From positions 1 to 25,101 of the forward strand of contig JAPYVP010000008.1 of assembly GCA_028276785.1 (NCBI GenBank): a stretch of DNA of 25,101 bases. Direction: 5' to 3'. The notes under the pieces are model-generated. The model did no database searches and had not been told where the DNA came from. It saw only the letters and a list, made by a program, of their open reading frames with translations. Shown piece after piece: positions 2,043 through 23,246 of the stretch (positions are counted from its first letter, which is position 1; the number at the start of each line of letters is the position of its first letter). The position numbers and the translations under genes are program-made. Source of the DNA: Candidatus Nanopusillus sp. (GTDB lineage Archaea > Nanobdellota > Nanobdellia > Nanobdellales > Nanobdellaceae).

Positions 2043-3566
2043 TTATCTTTTTGCAAACTTTATACCCTTCTTCTCATATTCAATAATATTCATTAATAAC
2101 TCATCCTCACTTTTATATTCTTTCTTTAATAAAAATCTCGCAGATAAATAACTTATACCTTTACCAGCGTAAATAAATACAAACTTTTTACCATAATTTT
2201 TTAATAATTCTGCAGTTATATTCATTTTTTTCTCATCTTCTAAATCCTTTTCACTTTTTGCAACACCAAAATATTGACCTCCACATTTTTTACATTCTAA
2301 TTTTTCATCATAATCTTTTACCTTTATTTTATATCTTGTTCCGCAAGCCATACAAACAAATATTAATTCAGTATTTTCAATTCTTTCCTTTACCAATTTC
2401 AATACTTCTCTCCATTTATCAGAAATTAATACATCAGATACATATTCCTCCAATCCTAAAATTGCTAAAGGTGATATATTTTCCCTATCAACAATATTTA
2501 CTTTTATTTTTTTCTCCTTTATTTTCTTTAATATTGTCTTTAAATTTTTCACATCTAACTTTTCAATAAATAATTCATTTAATGTTTCTCTATATACTGG
2601 TGTATTAATTAAATGATCTAGAATTCTTCTTAAAGTAGATTTTGAATAATCAGCATCTTTTCTAATTACTCCAAACCTCTTTGCAACATGTGAAAATTTC
2701 CATAAAAATAAATCTGTATTAACTATTGCTTTCTCTAATATACTTTCTATATTATCTAAATCAATATTTTCAATTACTTCCTTAATATTTTCTTTTGTAA
2801 TATATCCAGCTTTTAACATTATTCTATAAGGATCTGTTTTTATCCCGACAACAATCCCATATTTTTCAGATAATATTTGGGAAATTAACCTTGACAATGC
2901 ATCATTTATTTTACTTCCAAATGGAGAATGAATAATAAACCAATCCCTATATTGTTCAATGTAAATATTATTTTTACTTGGGTAAAAATATAGTTCTTGA
3001 TTTTTTAGTTCATCAAAATTTAATAGTTCTTTCTTTATTTCCTGAGCTTCTTGTGCAACTTCTAATGGTACAGGTAACAATTCACCTTCCCAAGAAGGTA
3101 TTGCAGATTCAAAATCTTTTTCCAATCCAACCAAAATCTTATTTTTTTCAATTTTTTCAATCTTCCATGGTAAACCCCTTAATATAAATATTGTACCTGG
3201 ATTTCCATGTTTTGCAACAAATTCTTCATGCAATATACCAATCTTTTGACCAGTTGTTATATCATATACATCATATGATTTTTCATCTGGTATCATTGAA
3301 ATATTATCTAAAAAATAGAATAGGCCTTTTCTTGTTTTAATTAATTTCTTATTTTCTTTATCGTATATTAAAATCTTTATTGAATCTAAGAAATTTATTA
3401 TTTCCAAAAATTCTTCATATGTTAAATCTTTATATATATACGATCTTTTTATTGTATTCCATACAAGATCTATATCAACTTCTCCATATTCCAAAGTCAT
3501 TCCAACAATTTGATTGGCCAATACATCAAAAGCATTATAATGAATCTCTGGTTTTTCAATTTTCAT
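2043..3566 (-). CDS. Lhr-type helicase C-terminal module (winged-helix / DEAD-associated region plus Zn ribbon) without a helicase motor
   Basis: The 507-aa ORF starts at ...IHYNAFDVLANQIVGMTLEYGEVDIDLVWNTIKRSYIYKDLTYEEFLEIINFL. This resembles the segment that follows RecA2 in Lhr-like helicases (PLDVLAQQIV...Y..L....F..v). A CMACG...CKKCG zinc ribbon lies near the C-terminus. No Walker A/B or DEAH motifs occur in this ORF. Upstream is an 87-bp divergent intergenic region, not a helicase core. Confidence 0.55.
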   Translation of the reverse strand: MKIEKPEIHYNAFDVLANQIVGMTLEYGEVDIDLVWNTIKRSYIYKDLTYEEFLEIINFLDSIKILIYDKENKKLIKTRKGLFYFLDNISMIPDEKSYDVYDITTGQKIGILHEEFVAKHGNPGTIFILRGLPWKIEKIEKNKILVGLEKDFESAIPSWEGELLPVPLEVAQEAQEIKKELLNFDELKNQELYFYPSKNNIYIEQYRDWFIIHSPFGSKINDALSRLISQILSEKYGIVVGIKTDPYRIMLKAGYITKENIKEVIENIDLDNIESILEKAIVNTDLFLWKFSHVAKRFGVIRKDADYSKSTLRRILDHLINTPVYRETLNELFIEKLDVKNLKTILKKIKEKKIKVNIVDRENISPLAILGLEEYVSDVLISDKWREVLKLVKERIENTELIFVCMACGTRYKIKVKDYDEKLECKKCGGQYFGVAKSEKDLEDEKKMNITAELLKNYGKKFVFIYAGKGISYLSARFLLKKEYKSEDELLMNIIEYEKKGIKFAKR

Positions 3567-3653: not shown

Positions 3654-4529
3654 ATGGGCGGACAAAACCAAAACAAAAAATTTTATAAAACGGGTTTGGA
3701 GGGGCTTCTAGAGGGAACATTGGAGGTTATGAGGGATGAAAGTAAATTCCCATACTTTAGCCTATTGCTAGGGTCTATAGGAAAATTTAATAAACTATTA
3801 AGGGGTGCAAAACATGACCGACACCCAATAGTAGACTTTGAAAGGCAACAATTATTAAAAGAAATAATAAAATTGATAGAAAAGTATTTAGATATAGAGC
3901 CTGATCCGCTAACATTCATAGCAGGTCTATCAATAATAGGATATGCACAAAATGGGTATAAAGTCGAAGTAATGAGCTGTCGTCAGCGTCGTGACGATGA
4001 TGAGTGTTGGTATGAGACAATCTCATATACAAAAGGAGAACTAGCTGAAGAGATAGGAAAGATATTAATAGAATATGCTACAAATATGCTAAGAGATAAA
4101 TATTACAGTAGAAGGGAAATAGAAAACATAAGAAGAAATCTAAACGAAATTGTAAATACAATTGAAGGATGGAAGCCATACGATATAGATTGGGCATTGG
4201 GATTACTATACAGATCAATAGGACTAATGTATATAGAAAAACTAAAGAAATTGGGAATAGCAAAGGAAGAATCTGGAGAACCATATAAAATAATAATAGA
4301 TGAAAAGAAATTAATGGAAATGTATAAACCATTAATACAATCAATAGGATTGACTGATGAAATAATAGAGGCATTCAAATATACAATAGCTGAGGGATCG
4401 TCTTCCAAAGTTACAGATATGAGAGAGATATATGAAGCAATAGAAAGAGAGTTGAAGAAAGATCCAAAATATAAAATGTGTATGGAAGCCATGCCAAAAT
4501 GTAGGATAAATGTATGGGAAAGATACTGA
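3654..4529 (+). CDS. Hypothetical protein (ORFan); helix / beta-meander / GELAEEIGK segment plus C-terminal winged-helix-like motif
   Basis: 291-aa ORF with no family motif I recognise. Residues ~193-218, YIEKLKKLGIAKEESGEPYKIIIDEKK, match a motif in the two downstream ORFs. ISYTKGELAEEIGKILIEY resembles IRYKVSGELAKELAMGIGKHF in the 18345 gene. Confidence 0.7.
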   Translation: MGGQNQNKKFYKTGLEGLLEGTLEVMRDESKFPYFSLLLGSIGKFNKLLRGAKHDRHPIVDFERQQLLKEIIKLIEKYLDIEPDPLTFIAGLSIIGYAQNGYKVEVMSCRQRRDDDECWYETISYTKGELAEEIGKILIEYATNMLRDKYYSRREIENIRRNLNEIVNTIEGWKPYDIDWALGLLYRSIGLMYIEKLKKLGIAKEESGEPYKIIIDEKKLMEMYKPLIQSIGLTDEIIEAFKYTIAEGSSSKVTDMREIYEAIERELKKDPKYKMCMEAMPKCRINVWERY

Positions 4530-4553
4530 AAAGGCTGGAAAATCTAATTTTTT
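4530..4553 (+). terminator. Oligo-T terminator region with shared AAGGC...ATCTAATTTTT motif
   Basis: AAAAGGCTGGAAAATCTAATTTTTT lies immediately after the stop codon. Related strings follow bcp, the 16193 gene and the 17343 gene. Confidence 0.35.
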
Positions 4554-4654
4554 ATAGATAATTCTATCTTTAATAATTATTAAATAATTATGAAATATTT
4601 TAAAACGTGTAAAAAACTAAAAAAGTTGGCATTAAATATAAAAATTTTTAAAAT

Positions 4655-13768: not shown

Positions 13769-14464
13769 TTATTTCTTTAGCTCTTTATAAGCAAACCACC
13801 AATCTAGCATTTCTAATTCTTTCTTCTTTGCTTTCTCTTCTATTTCTTTCATTTTTTCAATTGTACGTGCTGGCGGTATTATTACTTTATTTCCAACTAA
13901 ACTAGATGATTTCCATTCTAATTTATCTACATACCAATTTGCTGGTAATGCAACTTTTTCTTTATCCGATACTTGTAATGCATATACCAATCTATATATT
14001 TCTATAATATTCCTTCCAACTTCTGGTGGGTAATATACAACCGCCCTTATAATTCCTTCTGGATCTACAACAAACACAGCTCTTACAGTATTTGTTCCGC
14101 CACTTACTGGTAACATACCCAACATAGATGCTAATTTGCCCAAATCATCTGCAATTATTGGGAATGGAATTTCTGTTTTTGCCTTTTCTTTTATCCATTC
14201 AACCCACTTTATATGAGAATATACTTGATCTATAGATAATCCTATTAATTCTACTCCAATTTCTTTAAACTTTGGATACATTCTTGCAAATTCTACAAAT
14301 TCTGTTGTACATACTGGTGTAAAATCTGCTGGATGGCTAAATAATATAAACCATTTTCCTTTATAGTAATCTGGCAATTTTATTTTTCCGTGTGTTGTAT
14401 GTACTTCTACTTCTGGAAATCTACTACCTATTCTTGGGATTCCATTAATTTTTTCTTCTTCCAT
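13769..14464 (-). CDS. Peroxiredoxin (archaeal Prx6-like; apparently 1-Cys)
   Basis: The peroxidatic motif [13 protein letters not shown] is present. The C-terminal [10 protein letters not shown] lacks the two cysteines that, as I recall, flank DWWF in Aeropyrum/Pyrococcus Prx. Confidence 0.85.
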
Positions 14465-15007: not shown

Positions 15008-15457
15008 ATGGAGTCTATAGATTTTGAAGCTGAAAGTACAAATGGGAAGATAAGGTTGAGCAATATATTAAAGGAAAAAGATTTTGTAGTTGTATATTTT
15101 TATCCAAAGGCATTTACTAGCGGATGTACACAAGAATTAAAGAGGTTTGTAGAATTATATGAAGAATTTAAAAAATATAATACAGAAATAATTGGGATAA
15201 GTAATGATAAATTGGATACACAGAAAAAATTTGCTGAAAAATATGGTGCAAAATTTCCTCTGGTTGCAGATCCCGAATTAAAAATAATAAAATTATTTAA
15301 CGCAAAAAGTGCTAGAGGAAAAGGGGCAAGTAGAATTACTTTCATAATAGATAAAAATTTAAAGATTGTTGAAACATTAAAATCATTAAAAAATGCTGCA
15401 GAACATGCTGATAAAGCTCTAGAAAAAATTAAGGAATTACATAGCAAAGGCCTTTAA
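15008..15457 (+). CDS. bcp: Peroxiredoxin Q / bacterioferritin comigratory protein
   Basis: Motifs present: VVYFYPKAFTSGCTQE...GISNDKLDTQKKFAEKYGAKFPLVAD. The ATG is at leaderless spacing from a TATA-like AATTATAAAG. Confidence 0.85.
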   Translation: MESIDFEAESTNGKIRLSNILKEKDFVVVYFYPKAFTSGCTQELKRFVELYEEFKKYNTEIIGISNDKLDTQKKFAEKYGAKFPLVADPELKIIKLFNAKSARGKGASRITFIIDKNLKIVETLKSLKNAAEHADKALEKIKELHSKGL

Positions 15458-15472: not shown

Positions 15473-15557
15473 TTCTTTCTTATTCTTACTTTTTCCCCTA
15501 GTACAACCCATATTTAATTATAAATTTATTGGATAATATAAATTTTTCTAATAATAT

Positions 15558-16067
15558 TTGATAATGATAAAAATATTTGATTATGAACTATATTCTGGAT
15601 ATATAATGTTAAATGGAAAAATTGTCGCCTATTCCTTACATAATAATAAAGATATGCTAATAAAAAATTTAGCGAAAATTGCTAAATTTCATAATTTAGA
15701 TGGAGATCTTATTTTTGATGAAAATTTAGATAAATTTTTTCAAGAGAAGATAAATAAAGTATTAAATAATAAAGAGAAATTTAAATTAGATCTAAGCAAA
15801 TATAGATATAGAGATATATATGAAAAAATATTGGAAATACCTTTTGGAAAAACCATAACATATAAAGAATTATATAATAATCTAAATAAAAAATATAATA
15901 TGTTACAAATATTGAATGCTATAAAAAATAATCCATTTATTATTTTAATTCCATGTCATAGAATTATTAAAGAAGATAATATTTCTGGTTATACGCCTTT
16001 AGGAATTGAATTTAAAAGAAAATTGCTGGAATATGAAAATAATTTTTTGATTAACTATAAGCAATAG
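15558..16067 (+). CDS. ogt: Methylated-DNA--protein-cysteine methyltransferase (Ogt/MGMT)
   Basis: The active-site motif IPCHRII is present, with a helix-turn-helix TITYKELYNNL upstream. The track start at 15558 is TTG. ATG at 15564 is an equally plausible start. Confidence 0.8.
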   Translation: MIMIKIFDYELYSGYIMLNGKIVAYSLHNNKDMLIKNLAKIAKFHNLDGDLIFDENLDKFFQEKINKVLNNKEKFKLDLSKYRYRDIYEKILEIPFGKTITYKELYNNLNKKYNMLQILNAIKNNPFIILIPCHRIIKEDNISGYTPLGIEFKRKLLEYENNFLINYKQ

Positions 16068-16139
16068 TATGTTTAAATAATATTTCATAGATCTTTAAAG
16101 TTGATAAATATGAATTACTATGAAATTTATGTTATTATT

Positions 16140-16192
16140 ATGTGACATTTGTAAAAGAAAACTTTATAAATTTTGTTGTAAATATATATAAT
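16140..16192 (+). promoter_or_regulatory. Shared 5' module, copy 1: palindrome ATGTGACAT (16140-16148), BRE AGAAAAC, TATA TTTATAAA (16163-16170)
   Basis: The TATA box starts 30 bp upstream of ATG 16193, so the transcript should be leaderless. The string is nearly identical to copies at 16676 and 18292. Confidence 0.7.
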
Positions 16193-16525
16193 ATGGACAA
16201 CCTTGATAAAAAAGTTGGAGGTATAAACATAAAACAAAACCAGAAAATGTCTGTGGGGGAAGCAGCTAGTATATTACTTGAATACTTTAAAAAGTATGCA
16301 GACCAGCATGGTGGGATTGGATTTCGTTATGGAGGTACCAATAGAGATTTTAGCATAGAAAGTAGAGATGGATCTTTAAGGATCATTTATAACCCTGAGC
16401 ATGGTTTAAATATAAAAATTGGAAATACAGAATTTAGAGCTGGTAATGAACTATATATTGATATTAGACCGTTATTGAAGATATTGGGCTTCATAATAGA
16501 CAATTATAAAGAAAAGAGATTATAG
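16193..16525 (+). CDS. MD-family protein 1 (110 aa; single copy of the family domain; function unknown)
   Basis: The start is reassigned to ATG 16193 (MDNLDKK...), because the track ORF from GTG 16142 translates promoter DNA. The layout is helix VGEAASILLEYFKKYADQHGG, then beta-rich GIGFRYGG...LRIIYNPEHGLNIKIG, then a helix. FKKYADQHGG parallels NYFLEQHGV in the 17343 gene. Confidence 0.7.
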   Translation: MDNLDKKVGGINIKQNQKMSVGEAASILLEYFKKYADQHGGIGFRYGGTNRDFSIESRDGSLRIIYNPEHGLNIKIGNTEFRAGNELYIDIRPLLKILGFIIDNYKEKRL

Positions 16526-16526
16526 T

Positions 16527-16548
16527 CCAGGCCCTTAATCCAATTTTT
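16527..16548 (+). terminator. Oligo-T terminator region with CCAGGCCCTTAATCCAATTTTT motif
   Basis: It lies directly after the stop codon and is related to the motifs at 4530, 15446 and 18060. Confidence 0.3.
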
Positions 16549-16675
16549 AAAAATAATTTTTAATTTTTCTAGAATTTCCCACCAAAGATAATATATATAA
16601 CGTCATCATAACTAAATATTTTTCAACTATTATCTATATAATTATACTGTATCTATTACTTGATGTATTGTTATC

Positions 16676-16728
16676 TTGTGACAATTATAAAGAAAAATTT
16701 TATAAATTTTGTTGTAAATATATATAGT
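16676..16728 (+). promoter_or_regulatory. Shared 5' module, copy 2: palindrome TTGTGACAA (16676-16684), TATA TTTATAAA (16699-16706)
   Basis: The TATA box starts 30 bp upstream of ATG 16729. Across 86 bp (16676-16761) there are about 6 mismatches to 18292-18377. Confidence 0.7.
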
Positions 16729-17202
16729 ATGGACGGCAAATATACAAACCTTGACGAAAGATTACAAGAACAAAACTTAAGACATGGAAGGAAACCATCA
16801 GAACTGCTAGAACTTATAGTAAAGCATGATCCTTGTAAAATTCCGGGATATGCTTGCATTCCAGAAAGAGAATATAGAAGAAGAGACTCTACATTCCCAA
16901 TGCCAATAGTAGAACCAGATCCAAATAATAAAAATGATGGAATATATAGGATTCTACCAATAAATCCCGAAGATAAGCTTAAACAAGGAGAATATCATCT
17001 TCTACCAATAATGGAACCAAACCAAAATAAAAATCCGGGAGAGGGGTATGTTTGGATTCCAGAAGAAACAGTTTGGATTCCTGAAAGAGGACAAATCATG
17101 GTACCACATAAATACATCCATACTAAGATTCCAGGAGAAATAGTTTATATTCCAGGACTGGGATATGGCTTTATACCCTACAAATACACTCTAAAGCCAT
17201 AA
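16729..17202 (+). CDS. MD-family protein 2 (157 aa; Pro-rich IPE/LPI repeat protein; function unknown)
   Basis: The start is reassigned to ATG 16729 (MDGKYTNLDERL...). The body has internal repeats: GIYRILPINPEDK / GEYHLLPIMEPNQNK and YVWIPEET / VWIPERG. The latter is a 21-bp tandem at 17050-17091. YIPGLGYGFIPY follows. Confidence 0.65.
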   Translation: MDGKYTNLDERLQEQNLRHGRKPSELLELIVKHDPCKIPGYACIPEREYRRRDSTFPMPIVEPDPNNKNDGIYRILPINPEDKLKQGEYHLLPIMEPNQNKNPGEGYVWIPEETVWIPERGQIMVPHKYIHTKIPGEIVYIPGLGYGFIPYKYTLKP

Positions 17203-17296
17203 AAATTATTTGACTTTTTAAATATCTTTTTAAAATGTTTTCATATTATAAAGTGTTAAATACTTTTTAAAATATTTTAATCATTATCTAATTGTA

Positions 17297-17342
17297 TCTA
17301 TAAAAGAAAACTTTATAAATGTTTCATAACAACTTATATAAT
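17297..17342 (+). promoter_or_regulatory. Shared 5' module, copy 3 (diverged): BRE/TATA AAAAGAAAACTTTATAAA, TATA at 17312-17319; no TGTGACA palindrome
   Basis: The TATA box starts 31 bp upstream of ATG 17343. The 1-nt spacing difference and in-frame TAA codons upstream show this conserved block is non-coding. Confidence 0.65.
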
Positions 17343-18059
17343 ATGGACGGACCATATGAAAACCCTGACGAAAAAATAGAAGAATTTCAAAAACAAAAGA
17401 CAACTGGAGAAATGTTGAGAGATGTAATAAACGATATTCTAAAACAATACAATATAACAGCATATGAAAATGACGAAATTCGATACGTGGGAATTAGGGG
17501 TGGAAAAGCTTATCTACTACAAAAGAAAGCTGATGATGGGTACACTACAATATCTTCCGTTATTCCAAAGCCATTATTAGAGAAGGCAGCTACCACAATA
17601 GAAAAATATATTCCAATCAACGGCCTAGATAAGGCAATTGAAGGAGTAGAAAGAGCAAAAGCTGAATTGACTCTTAAAGGGGGAGAATATATTCTAAAAT
17701 TTGATATGAGACTGAAACAAGAAAATACACAAGCAAAAGAGACTCTTGAAGAATTATTTAGAAAGACGATGAATTACTTTTTAGAACAACATGGCGTTAA
17801 AATCGATGATATTTATGGAAAAGAAAATATAAAAATCGAAAATAGTAATTATCAAATAGTACACAGCAAGAATGGAGACACTATTATATACTCTACTATT
17901 CCAAAATCATTATTAAAAGAAATAGCCAATACTGTAGAAAAATGTCTTTCTCTCAAAAGTTTAGATAGTGCAATTGAAAAAGTAGATGAAGCAGGAATTG
18001 CAATGACCCATTCAGGAAAAGATTATACTATATATCTTATTATAAAAACAAAGAGATAA
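17343..18059 (+). CDS. MD-family protein 3 (238 aa; two tandem copies of the family domain; function unknown)
   Basis: The start is at ATG 17343 (MDGPYENPDEK...). There is an internal duplication. VIPKPLLEKAATTIEKYIPINGLDKAIEGVERA (aa 73-105) aligns with TIPKSLLKEIANTVEKCLSLKSLDSAIEKVDEA (aa 185-217), about 16 of 33 identical. Confidence 0.75.
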   Translation: MDGPYENPDEKIEEFQKQKTTGEMLRDVINDILKQYNITAYENDEIRYVGIRGGKAYLLQKKADDGYTTISSVIPKPLLEKAATTIEKYIPINGLDKAIEGVERAKAELTLKGGEYILKFDMRLKQENTQAKETLEELFRKTMNYFLEQHGVKIDDIYGKENIKIENSNYQIVHSKNGDTIIYSTIPKSLLKEIANTVEKCLSLKSLDSAIEKVDEAGIAMTHSGKDYTIYLIIKTKR

Positions 18060-18098
18060 GCAAGGCTTTAGCTTATATCTAATTTTTGCTTTTTTTTC
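18060..18098 (+). terminator. Oligo-T terminator region GCAAGGCTTTAGCTTATATCTAATTTTTGCTTTTTTTT
   Basis: Two T-runs lie directly after the stop codon. The string shares AAGGC...ATCTAATTTTT with three other 3' ends. Confidence 0.4.
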
Positions 18099-18190
18099 TA
18101 AAGTTAAGTTCAATTATAAAATTTATTATTATTCTAACTTCATGTTATAAAATTGTTAAAAAAACAATATTTTTAGTTACAATCATCAAA

Positions 18191-18249
18191 AGTTGTATTT
18201 AAAAGAAGATTATTGGAGTATGAATATATGCTGATTAATTATAAGCAAT
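18191..18249 (+). pseudogene. Relic of the ogt 3' end (duplicate of 16004-16065)
   Basis: AGTTGTATTTAAAAGAAGATTATTGGAGTATGAATATATGCTGATTAATTATAAGCAAT aligns with AATTGAATTTAAAAGAAAATTGCTGGAATATGAAAATAATTTTTTGATTAACTATAAGCAAT, roughly three quarters identical by eye. In-frame it reads LEYEYMLINYKQ versus ogt LLEYENNFLINYKQ-stop. Confidence 0.55.
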
Positions 18250-18291
18250 CTCTTATAGGTATCTTTTTAGATATATATTTGTATTATTATT

Positions 18292-18344
18292 ATGTGACAT
18301 TTATAAAAGAAAACTTTATAAATTTTGTTGTAAATATATATAGT
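18292..18344 (+). promoter_or_regulatory. Shared 5' module, copy 4: palindrome ATGTGACAT (18292-18300), TATA TTTATAAA (18315-18322)
   Basis: The TATA box starts 30 bp upstream of ATG 18345. The string is almost identical to copy 1 and copy 2. Confidence 0.7.
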
Positions 18345-19163
18345 ATGGACGGCGAATATACAAACCTTGACGAAAAAATGAAACAACCACCAAATAGAGC
18401 AATGTATGAAATATATACAAGCATACTGAAAGCAATGAAAGAAGGAGGAATTAAAATCGAAGAAGGAGATAATAGCATCGTTATAAATATTGGGAATCCT
18501 AACGAAGAAAGCTATCTAACAATACTACAGAAAGCAGCTGAAAATCATACAAAAATACGCTATAAAGTTTCAGGAGAGCTAGCAAAAGAATTAGCCATGG
18601 GAATAGGAAAGCATTTTCCAACATTTGAAGGACTTGATAAACTAGTCGATAATATAAGCTATGTAGGCGTTGAAACGTGTATCAGGGATAATGAAAAGAG
18701 ATGTGAAAGTGGTAGAGAATACTGCAGGAAAATTACTACAACAATTGAGATAATAAGAAAATCATACAGAAATCCAAAACAAGATGAAACACAACCACAA
18801 CAACCAACCGAACTAGGCGTAAAATTAGCCCAAAGCGCGCTAAGAGAACTAACAAATCTTGTAGCAAATTACAATATTAGTGCTTCTGCATTTGATGATG
18901 GAAGCACATATGTAAGTAGAAAAGATAACGAAGAACCCATCTTTATAGTGTGGCCACCTTACGAGAGGGGTTTGCAATCATTTACTGTATCAGGAAAGCT
19001 GGCAGAAGATTTAATCAGAGAAATAGGAAGATATATTCCTCTTCCAAGAGATCTAGAAGAGGCAAAAAATGTAAGAGTTATATGGGAGTATTACCCAAAT
19101 GGATACGCGATAACACTCAAAACGGAAACAGAACCAAGAAAACCTACCAACTTTTCTAAATAA
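18345..19163 (+). CDS. MD-family protein 4 (272 aa; two copies of the family domain joined by a Q/P-rich linker; function unknown)
   Basis: The start is reassigned to ATG 18345 (MDGEYTNLDEK...). The track ORF from TTG 18213 runs through the ogt relic and the promoter. The repeats are KVSGELAKELAMGIGKHFPTFEGLDKLVDNI (aa 74-104) and TVSGKLAEDLIREIGRYIPLPRDLEEAKNV (aa 214-243). K-H/Y-F/I-P...GLDK matches the 17343 gene. Confidence 0.75.
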   Translation: MDGEYTNLDEKMKQPPNRAMYEIYTSILKAMKEGGIKIEEGDNSIVINIGNPNEESYLTILQKAAENHTKIRYKVSGELAKELAMGIGKHFPTFEGLDKLVDNISYVGVETCIRDNEKRCESGREYCRKITTTIEIIRKSYRNPKQDETQPQQPTELGVKLAQSALRELTNLVANYNISASAFDDGSTYVSRKDNEEPIFIVWPPYERGLQSFTVSGKLAEDLIREIGRYIPLPRDLEEAKNVRVIWEYYPNGYAITLKTETEPRKPTNFSK

Positions 19164-19393
19164 TTTTTTTCTATTTTTTCTAATAGTATTATTATATAAT
19201 AATCAGCATTTTGAAGTCTTATTCGACAATTTCTATCTAAAGCAAATGTTTATATCTTTTTTAAATTTTTAGTTCTAGTAGGTAAGTCAATATAATCTTT
19301 ATAAATACCCAATGTGATAAATAATAACGCTTATATTAATATAGATCTTCTACAATTATTTACATAAAATATACAACTTTGATTTCAAAAAAT

Positions 19394-20011
19394 TTATACT
19401 TTCAATGCCTCAAATCTTTTTTCCACTACTGGCCAATCTATATTATCAAAGAATATATCTACATATCCTTTTCTATTACTTCCATAATCTAAATAATATG
19501 CATGTTCAAATACATCTAATGCTAATATTAATTTTGAATTTTGTACCATATATGTATTCTGTTCATCAGATATACTAATTACCAGTCTATTTAGATCATC
19601 TGACCATAATAACCATGCCCATCCCCTTGCACTCATAGCAGTTGCTTTCATCTCTTTAACAAATTTTTCAAATGATCCAAAATCTTTATCTATTTGTGAT
19701 CCCAATGTTGATCCTGGTTTTCCTCCTTCTCCACCCAAATGACCAAAGTATATTTCATGATTAATCATTCCTCCAAATGCTCTAGTCCATTCAACTTTTA
19801 ATTCTCTTATCAATGAATATGTTACATTTGCTGCATTATAATCCTCATCCGTCAAATTATTTAGCTTTTGTGTTATCTCATTAAATTTCTTTACATATCC
19901 TTCATATATCTTCAAATGTTCTTCTACTGTTTTTGCTGAAATACCTTTCATTTTAAACAATTGTGGTCTCTCTTTCTTAAAATCTACCGGTTTTCTTTCT
20001 AAATTTTCCAT
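19394..20011 (-). CDS. sod: Fe/Mn-family superoxide dismutase
   Basis: DVFEHAYYLDY (the D-x-W/F-E-H-A-Y-Y box) and NHEIYFGHL are present. The N-terminal His box is atypical: EEHLKIYEGYVKKFN. Confidence 0.85.
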   Translation of the reverse strand: MENLERKPVDFKKERPQLFKMKGISAKTVEEHLKIYEGYVKKFNEITQKLNNLTDEDYNAANVTYSLIRELKVEWTRAFGGMINHEIYFGHLGGEGGKPGSTLGSQIDKDFGSFEKFVKEMKATAMSARGWAWLLWSDDLNRLVISISDEQNTYMVQNSKLILALDVFEHAYYLDYGSNRKGYVDIFFDNIDWPVVEKRFEALKV

Positions 20012-23105: not shown

Positions 23106-23140
23106 AAAATATTATTTCAAAAATTATGTATAAAAGAACC

Positions 23141-23213
23141 CGGGCCCGGGGGGATTCGAACCCCCGATCTTCGGGTTAAGAGCCCGACGCTTTACCGACT
23201 AAGCTACGGGCCC
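23141..23213 (-). tRNA. tRNA-Lys (anticodon CUU), 73 nt, no encoded CCA
   Basis: The minus strand folds as GGGCCCG TA GCTT AGTCGGTA AAGC G TCGGG CTCTTAA CCCGA AGATC GGGGG TTCGAAT CCCCC CGGGCCC G. This gives a full cloverleaf with an all-G:C acceptor stem and T stem and an anticodon loop C-T-CTT-A-A. TTTATAAT lies about 26-33 nt upstream on the minus strand. Confidence 0.95.
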
Positions 23214-23246
23214 AATATAAATTTTATGATAAAAAGAAATTATAAA

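Follow-up and report, generated by a model that had tools for sequence, protein, structure and literature searches.

How do four neighboring genes come to have nearly the same promoter and first codons in front of bodies that differ? This question is raised by a 25,101-nucleotide stretch of DNA from Candidatus Nanopusillus sp. (contig JAPYVP010000008.1), referred to here in its full length as the window, in which four consecutive plus-strand genes, designated g1 to g4, form an array between ogt and sod. A sequence-only reading of the window had placed their start codons at ATG 16193, 16729, 17343, and 18345, and open frames of 110, 157, 238, and 272 aa follow these starts as claimed. It had also proposed that a 5' module was joined to different gene bodies by recombination or gene conversion. 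A tract in g2 that has the bases of g4, units of spacer and gene body that have been paired anew between lineages, and arrays of 0 to 5 genes at the same site all agree with that proposal. The array is probably a lineage-specific, strain-variable tandem family that sits at the ogt-sod junction and recombines through the shared modules.

A common 5' module precedes each gene of the array

The module comprises a TGTGACA core, a transcription factor B recognition element (BRE) and TATA box, the initiator region, and the first 11 to 12 codons, ∼95 to 110 bp in all; between g1 and g2, the shared codons reach 17. Most copies are at least 90% alike, whereas the bodies are either unrelated or no more than 25% identical. 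A repeat finder grouped 82-nt segments at the four starts into one direct-repeat family of four copies (71 to 89% identity to copy 2), which bears out the common string that had been noticed in front of the genes. An nhmmer profile spanning −62 to +33 of the module matched these four copies in the window (E values, 7e-18 to 8e-24) and nothing else.

All four copies are on the plus strand, and each follows a spacer of a different type (A, ogt to g1; B, g1 to g2; C, g2 to g3; D, g3 to g4). Copy 1 (type A, 16132 to 16223; E = 6.7e-18) has TGTGACA at 16141 to 16147, BRE/TATA at 16154 to 16171, and ATG at 16193. The corresponding positions in copy 2 (type B, 16668 to 16760; E = 3.2e-22) are 16677 to 16683 for TGTGACA, 16699 to 16707 for TATA, and 16729 for ATG, and those in copy 4 (type D, 18284 to 18376; E = 7.9e-24) are 18293 to 18299, 18315 to 18323, and 18345. 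Copy 3 (type C, 17281 to 17373; E = 1.6e-18; TATA at 17312 to 17320, ATG at 17343) lacks TGTGACA, has a spacing that is 1 nt longer, and cannot be opened as a reading frame upstream of 17319, all as previously described. Gene callers chose upstream GTG/TTG starts for g4 and for the protein P0001.

The 18-mer AAAGAAAACTTTATAAAT is present exactly at 16154, 17303, and 18306, and 8 matches were found when up to three mismatches were allowed, compared to 1.2 expected. The TATA sequence TTTATAAAT starts 30, 30, 31, and 30 nt upstream of the four ATGs, in agreement with the 30 to 31 bp given in the sequence-only reading, and is directly preceded by AAAGAAAAC. The stretch from TATA to ATG is TTTGTTGTAAATATATATA[AG]T, and no GGAGG-like Shine-Dalgarno motif was detected between TATA and ATG of the module copies. 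Because BRE/TATA is positioned ∼30 nt before the ATG and there is no Shine-Dalgarno motif, the mRNAs of the array are probably leaderless. A T-rich tract follows the stop codon of each array gene, and each gene would thus be transcribed as a separate unit with the same design as most genes of this genome.

Copies 2 and 4 are nearly identical, as had been claimed, although they differ at 7 of 86 positions rather than at about 6. Their identity is at least 95% up to +33 and then drops to a background of ∼35% within ∼20 nt, so that the abrupt drop inside the coding region also stood up to alignment. Copy 1 has the 12-nt deletion in the N-terminal codons that had been recognized before; its orthologues keep the full N terminus, MDGEYINLDKR or MDRKYQNLDER. 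In contrast, the 9-bp palindrome with a compensatory change of its outer pair did not survive comparison with other lineages, in which the outer bases differ (ATGTGACAC, TTGTGACAC, and TTGTGACAT) and the 7-bp TGTGACA core alone is conserved.

Exchange of sequence between modules

A gene conversion tract is located in module 2, from −18 to +30 (16711 to 16758, plus strand). Sites that are diagnostic for g2 versus g4 have the g4 state in window g2 at five of five positions inside this tract, compared to 1 of 15 outside it. When window g2 was compared with three concordant g2 orthologues over a 118-nt region, 6 of the 10 differing sites had the state of window g4 (binomial P, ∼8e-6). Other lineages have mosaic modules as well. 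The g1 gene of locus L005 and the g3 orthologue P0017 carry N termini of the g2/g4 type (MESKYTNLDEK in P0017), and g4 of L006 has g2-type bases at −54, −53, and −18.

The pairing of spacers with gene bodies also differs between lineages. The order in the window is A-g1, B-g2, C-g3, D-g4, whereas three independent assemblies (L030, L031, and L032), and L004 in part, have the order A-g1', B-g3, D-g2', C-g4a, B-g4b, in which g1' is a first gene of 132 to 136 aa (L030 and L004). In BLASTN comparisons of whole spacers, D and C are still attached downstream of g3 and g2, respectively, at 84 to 97% identity, but the bodies that come after these spacers have been exchanged. The junctions of B-g3 and D-g2' are in or near BRE/TATA. 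Those of C-g4a and B-g4b are at approximately codon 11 to 12, because both join a g3-type MDGPYKN[LP]D start to a g4 body. The L030-type order could be derived from the order in the window by one duplication and two deletions, each with a crossover between modules. Downstream of the last array gene in L030, positions 4332 to 4610 are 90% identical to the first half of the window g3-g4 spacer (18092 to 18223), which suggests a further truncated unit at the end of that array.

The origin of one unit has left a trace. A decayed copy of the 3' end of ogt, ∼100 nt in length, lies upstream of the g4 module (18147 to 18250, plus strand, aligned with 15960 to 16067; repeats D5 and D17 and alignment A2). 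This relic is conserved in L001 and L006 and is visibly more diverged than the adjoining module, of which copies 1 and 4 are >90% identical. The relic indicates that the 5' region of g4 is a segmental duplication of a stretch that ran from inside ogt into the first array gene.

These observations are consistent with a model in which the family grows by tandem segmental duplication, as seen for g4, and the ∼100-bp block of homology acts as a recombination substrate. Short gene conversion tracts and unequal crossing-over show that the copies undergo homologous recombination, and the same exchanges would duplicate, delete, and reorder the gene bodies. Purifying selection, presumed for the promoter and indicated by codon usage for the peptide M-[DG]-G-x-Y-x-N-L-D-[EK]-[KR], would help to keep the block alike. 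Such exchanges between modules would explain why related strains carry 0, 1, 2, 4, or 5 array genes in different orders.

Variation among strains at the ogt-sod junction

The ogt-sod junction is an accessory-gene hotspot in Nanopusillaceae, with a content that ranges from ∼20 bp to >5 kb (window 16068 to 19393 compared with L009, L013, L012, L034, and L030). Only ∼20 to 30 bp and no gene are present in L009 and L013. L034 and L035 have g4 alone (ogt-g4-sod), and L002 has A-g1 and B-g4. Four genes are found in the window, L001, L006, L033, and L037, and five genes together with a reverse-strand pair in L030, L031, and L032. The arrangements recur in independent samples, in that the window is matched by L028 and L029 and that L030 is matched by L031 and L032. 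None of g1 to g4 was detectable in reference genomes.

In Nanopusillus acidilobi (L012), L008, and L010, the junction holds two unrelated reverse-strand ORFan genes instead of the array, and the ogt-sod gap in N. acidilobi is 1.6 kb. The proteins of this pair are 221/222 aa and 277 aa (L012:10627-12125). The pair is also found beside the array at L030:4611-6112, and there is no remnant of it in the window. The 277-aa protein has a D...E-L-K stretch that is reminiscent of PD-(D/E)xK nucleases, with no Pfam or PADLOC match.

Generic and array-specific parts of the promoter

The sequence-only reading had pointed to BRE/TATA and a predicted leaderless design in the array genes; these features turned out to be ordinary here. 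A TTTATAAA-like box with no more than two mismatches is present at −33 to −26 in 20 of the 25 other genes of the window (5 and 10 at control positions), with an A-rich BRE upstream of the box and no Shine-Dalgarno motif. Since most of the other genes have this box, BRE/TATA and leaderless design appear to be generic for this genome, and the BRE/TATA of the array is near the genome consensus. A leaderless signature has been described in Nanoarchaeota (PMC5397173), and box A of Nanoarchaeum equitans lies 26 to 27 nt upstream of mapped transcription start sites (PMC3491384). Thus, the array resembles the other window genes and the nanoarchaeal box A (PMC3491384) in its BRE/TATA sequence and distance to ATG, and differs from a generic archaeal leaderless promoter in that the module extends ∼25 nt further upstream, to TGTGACA, and 33 to 50 nt into the coding region.

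The full block was found in the array only, which speaks against the generic genome-wide promoter that had been raised as a possibility. In ∼300 kb of loci, reference Nanopusillaceae loci included, the nhmmer profile matched array genes only. A 28-base degenerate pattern of the module had no match in 185,579 species (one genome each) or in the viral contigs of IMG/VR, and it matched five JGI metagenome contigs, all five of which are this array.

TGTGACA occurs three times in the window, always in a module, and a scan of 192 kb of Nanopusillaceae DNA gave five occurrences. The sole promoter-proximal occurrence in these 192 kb outside the window modules is at L013:15359 (ATGTGACAAATTTTACATTAATTTTATATTT) and could reflect either a shared regulator or chance. 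A TGTGACA regulon was considered and not called, as one further promoter-proximal occurrence in 192 kb is too few.

Constraint on the N-terminal peptide

The 26 distinct modules encode the pattern M-[DGE]-[GR]-x-Y-x-N-L-D-[EKR]-[KR]-[LMI]. D9 is invariant and is encoded by GAT in 11 modules and by GAC in 15. Codons for G3 are GGC, GGG, or GGA, and those for L8 are CTT or CTA, whereas positions 4 and 6 are each occupied by four or five different residues. Because conserved residues use varied codons while positions 4 and 6 vary, the pattern supports constraint on the N-terminal peptide as protein rather than on the DNA or RNA, as would be expected for the selected common N-terminal tag that the sequence-only reading had suggested.

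The peptide is strongly hydrophilic, with a mean hydropathy of −1.0 to −2.0 over the first 20 residues. No signal peptide or transmembrane segment was detected in the four array proteins (maximum hydropathy in 19-residue windows, <1.0), and the proteins are predicted to be soluble. It is doubtful, but conceivable, that M-D-G-x-Y-x-N-L-D-E-K serves as a recognition tag that hands diversifying soluble proteins to a common machinery, for example for delivery across the contact between nanoarchaeon and host. If so, the array would be an archaeal effector repertoire, and the 5' module would be at once a co-regulation signal, a targeting signal, and a recombination substrate for the swapping of gene bodies.

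Proteins encoded by the array

The gene g1 (16193 to 16525, plus strand) encodes a basic protein of 110 aa (pI 9.2) with no detectable relatives outside the array. The 157-aa product of g2 (16729 to 17202, plus strand) has a body unrelated to the others, with 12.7% proline and short aromatic-x-x-[IL]-P repeats (repeats D4, D8, and D10). The product of g3 (17343 to 18059, plus strand; 238 aa) consists of two copies of a novel α/β domain of ∼110 aa (residues ∼18 to 125 and 126 to 238). The 272-aa product of g4 (18345 to 19163, plus strand) also has two copies of the g3-type domain, with a Cys-containing insert and a Q/P-rich linker.

Profile-profile comparisons with hhalign were made with the first 20 residues removed. 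The proteins g3 and g4 aligned with an E value of 4e-5 over 160 columns, with a further cross-domain alignment at 1e-3, and g1' aligned with the two g3 domains at 7e-4 and 2e-3. No relationship to other array proteins was detectable for g1 or g2 with hhalign. On these profile alignments, g3 and g4 are distant paralogues, and the ∼110-aa domain is common to g3, g4, and g1'. The earlier description of the gene bodies as unrelated thus holds for g2 and fails for g3 and g4. The five classes of the domain align colinearly around (I/V)SxxLAKxLxxxIGxYIP(L/I)xxLD. AlphaFold2 gave a poor model of full-length g3 (predicted local distance difference test score [pLDDT], 60). A 24-sequence alignment of the domain gave a model with a pLDDT of 76, a predicted template modeling (TM) score of 0.62, and an α-β3-α2-β2 topology.

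The earlier reader had not recognized the proteins, and profile and structure searches did not place them either. There was no significant match to Pfam or PDB sequences, and Foldseek found no credible structural match (best E value in PDB, 0.13, with TM scores up to 0.34; best in BFVD, 0.06). No PHROG match was significant (best E value, 0.003 for g3, to families of unknown function). Word-indexed searches of 5.8 billion clusters returned 8 relatives of g4 and 11 of g3, and a search with the domain profile added no further relatives. When 1.84 billion representatives were searched exhaustively by HMMER with g3 as the query, there were four matches, three of them from the family itself. The fourth, a bacterial Cna-B-type repeat protein (E = 6e-4), was judged to be spurious. 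The array family appears, from these searches, to be confined to one clade.

Evolutionary rates and coding status

For rate estimates, the window was compared with L001 or L006 in a simple Nei-Gojobori count. Values of dN/dS were 1.3 to 1.4 for g1, 0.7 to 0.8 for g2, 0.9 to 1.4 for g3, and 1.1 for g4, compared to 0.04 to 0.08 for the genes for Lrp, peroxiredoxin (Prx), Ogt, and superoxide dismutase (SOD). The dS values of g1 to g3 in the same comparisons (0.05 to 0.10) are below those of the flanking genes for Lrp, Ogt, and SOD (0.25 to 0.27), and dN is 5 to 10 times higher; the low dS may mean that strains have recently exchanged the array, or it may be an artifact of the method at 25% GC.

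The frames of the array genes are still open at a nucleotide divergence of 14 to 24%. With the observed substitutions placed at random, the chance of finding no stop codon was 0.0006 to 0.03 for the more divergent pairs. The length variants are all in-frame. Since frames stay open and length variants are in-frame, the genes appear to be kept as coding genes although their sequences are free to change, a pattern that would be typical of genes for conflict or interaction. It is possible, although we hold this only tentatively, that the array encodes co-regulated, diversifying proteins whose role lies in biological conflict, be it with viruses or with the host cell.

Genomic setting of the array

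Nanoarchaeota are obligate ectosymbionts, and Nanopusillaceae are thermophilic nanoarchaeal ectosymbionts with genomes of ∼0.6 Mb. To our knowledge, almost nothing is known about the adaptation of Nanoarchaeota to hosts or viruses. The contig is from a Nanopusillaceae nanoarchaeon; the SOD of the window is 95 to 97% identical to those of Candidatus Nanopusillus and Nanobsidianus, and the gene order of the window (GC content, 25.4%) is syntenic across Nanopusillaceae. A methanogen origin, which the 25% GC and the histone gene had suggested, was rejected on the synteny of the SOD locus.

The left border of the array is ogt (O6-alkylguanine-DNA alkyltransferase; 15558 to 16067, plus strand; Pfam DNA_binding_1, 1.7e-18), which is syntenic in all Nanopusillaceae loci. 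A 19-nt tandem duplication at 15549 to 15586 overlaps the start of ogt, and the start is likely ATG 15564, not TTG 15558. The conserved right border is the gene for an Fe/Mn SOD (19394 to 20011, minus strand; Pfam Sod_Fe_C). Two peroxiredoxins, one of the 1-Cys type (13769 to 14464, minus strand, and 15008 to 15457, plus strand), together with Lrp/AsnC, Ogt, and SOD form an oxidative and alkylation stress cluster that is conserved across Nanopusillaceae.

The remaining genes of the window are likewise ordinary chromosomal genes (an Lhr fragment, AFOR, TtuA, glycosyltransferases, histone, MetAP, CutA, TruA, DUF72, tRNA-Lys, FKBP, and FtsZ). The Lhr fragment (2043 to 3566, minus strand) has only DEAD_assoc and Lhr winged-helix domains without the helicase core, and it may be part of a split Lhr gene; split genes are known in Nanoarchaeota. 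Pfam revealed no recombinase or integrase among the 29 open reading frames (ORFs) of the window. The tRNA-Lys (CTT; 23140 to 23214, minus strand) was the sole Rfam or ARAGORN match in the window, and the Rfam scan showed no RNA element at the array.

Alternative explanations

Several points weigh against the account of a recombining tandem family and the functions suggested for it. In the three closest genomes, orthologous modules differ at 3 to 11 positions (up to 16 in window g1, which has the deletion) and paralogous g2-g4 modules at 9 to 14. Because orthologous modules are closer than paralogous ones, homogenization appears to be patchy rather than wholesale, and much of the conservation of the module could be due to selection alone. 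All comparison loci are metagenome contigs, and the junction in L002 falls within an 18-nt shared stretch, so that it is possibly an assembly chimera; the variant arrangements other than that of L002 each recur in independent assemblies. The source genome is incomplete, and further copies of the module may therefore exist elsewhere in it. Transcription start sites, co-regulation of the genes, and use of the MDG start in translation are predictions, and Nei-Gojobori dN/dS values of ∼1 at 25% GC cannot separate positive from relaxed selection. The searches lent no support to the suggested conflict function, as there was no defense, phage, Pfam, or fold match; PADLOC defense models gave no match below an E value of 0.03. 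Wholesale concerted evolution was rejected as an explanation, since within-genome and between-genome distances of g2-g4 were nearly equal (10 versus 12 differences).

The closeness of orthologous modules would also be expected if g1 to g4 were ordinary tandem duplicates that diverged vertically, with the block kept alike by purifying selection only and no recombination. The peptide-level constraint and the similarity of the promoter to the genome consensus fit this explanation, but it is unlikely, because the derived states clustered in window g2 are identical to those of its paralogue, the g3 orthologue P0017 has a g2/g4-type N terminus, and spacer and body units have been re-paired between lineages with a copy number of 0 to 5. 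Recombination at high frequency, driven by a dedicated recombinase that places gene bodies behind an expression module as in phase or antigenic variation, would account for junctions that fall in the module and for arrangements that differ between strains. Such programmed switching is very improbable. There are no silent cassettes, because each copy has a complete promoter and start, the 25-kb window holds no recombinase or integrase, independent samples have the same stable arrangement, and the products have no export signals. A virus or other mobile element that integrated its cargo between ogt and sod is a less plausible source still, even though the junction is a hotspot with alternative cargo and the genes are patchily present across strains. 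An integrase, flanking tRNA, and terminal repeats are absent, the module is absent from IMG/VR, no PHROG match was significant, and the ogt-tail relic speaks for duplication in situ.

The array lies between ogt and sod and has two peroxiredoxin genes and Lrp/AsnC as neighbors, which raises the possibility that the four genes extend the local stress cluster (Prx, Prx, Ogt, SOD) and are switched by Lrp/AsnC via TGTGACA. Archaeal activators often bind just upstream of BRE, which is where this rare motif is found. However, the cluster and Lrp are no less conserved in genomes where the array is missing, and this makes a stress role less likely than a conflict role. The prx, ogt, sod, and lrp promoters lack TGTGACA, which within the window is confined to three array promoters. 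A dN/dS of ∼1 is unusual for stress enzymes, and the ogt-sod site in N. acidilobi holds unrelated cargo. Membership in a stress regulon is thus rather unlikely, and the adjacent Lrp/AsnC protein that had been suggested as the regulator is a poor candidate. The same dN/dS values, the lack of homologues outside a narrow clade, and the N-terminal deletion in window g1 might instead point to decaying or spurious ORFs, remnants of duplication that stay open by chance. We give this very little credence, as the frames have stayed open despite their divergence in a stop-rich genome of 25% GC, none of the length differences shifts the frame, promoter conservation is high, and the 24-sequence alignment yielded a domain model with the pLDDT given above.

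Comparison with known systems

A recombining tandem family of this kind would be an expandable, clade-restricted family with a built-in 100-bp block for recombination and expression, and it would offer a clean natural example of short conserved 5' segments that drive gene shuffling in archaea with leaderless mRNAs. Such loci mark genes for host interaction or conflict in reduced bacterial genomes, for example in Borrelia and Mycoplasma. The array offers an experimental handle in the form of a single promoter, a single peptide tag, and a single new domain, and a Nanopusillus-Acidilobus coculture is available. It should be of interest to those who study DPANN archaea and the evolution of multigene families.

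Mosaic tracts, copy number variation, and reordering with junctions in the repeat are shared with the general model of concerted evolution in tandem families. Concerted evolution usually homogenizes whole units, whereas homogenization of the array is restricted to the 5'-terminal ∼100 bp and the remainder of each unit diverges at a dN/dS of ∼1. The vsp, vlp, and vsa loci of Mycoplasma are clusters of paralogues in host-dependent organisms with reduced genomes. Their 5' noncoding and N-terminal coding regions are highly conserved, their bodies are divergent, and chimeras and changes in copy number arise by recombination. Their products are exported lipoproteins that are switched at high frequency by site-specific inversion or promoter slippage. 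The array resembles them in its clustered paralogues, conserved 5' and N-terminal regions, and divergent, recombining bodies, and it differs in lacking a signal peptide, a recombinase, and any sign of rapid switching.

Among described systems, the nearest analogue is the erp family of Borrelia burgdorferi (OspE/F-related, with an upstream homology box), in which the promoter/operator DNA and the first codons are conserved while the rest of the ORFs are diverse or independent in origin (PMC10016077). Members of the erp family recombine often and are coexpressed (PMC10016077). In both systems, a 5' block is conserved, identity drops sharply at a boundary within the coding region, and there are mosaic or recombinant alleles. 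However, erp genes have sigma-70 promoters with leaders, whereas the array has BRE/TATA and is probably leaderless. The N terminus in erp is a lipoprotein signal and sorting sequence, in contrast to the hydrophilic, acidic array peptide with no export signal, and erp loci are dispersed on cp32 prophages, whereas the array is one chromosomal tandem array. Searches of Pfam, NCBI-derived, and PHROG models revealed no sequence relationship to Erp. With no lipoprotein signal, no homology, and an archaeal chromosomal context, the array is not a member of the erp family; by analogy, it appears to work like that family without belonging to it.

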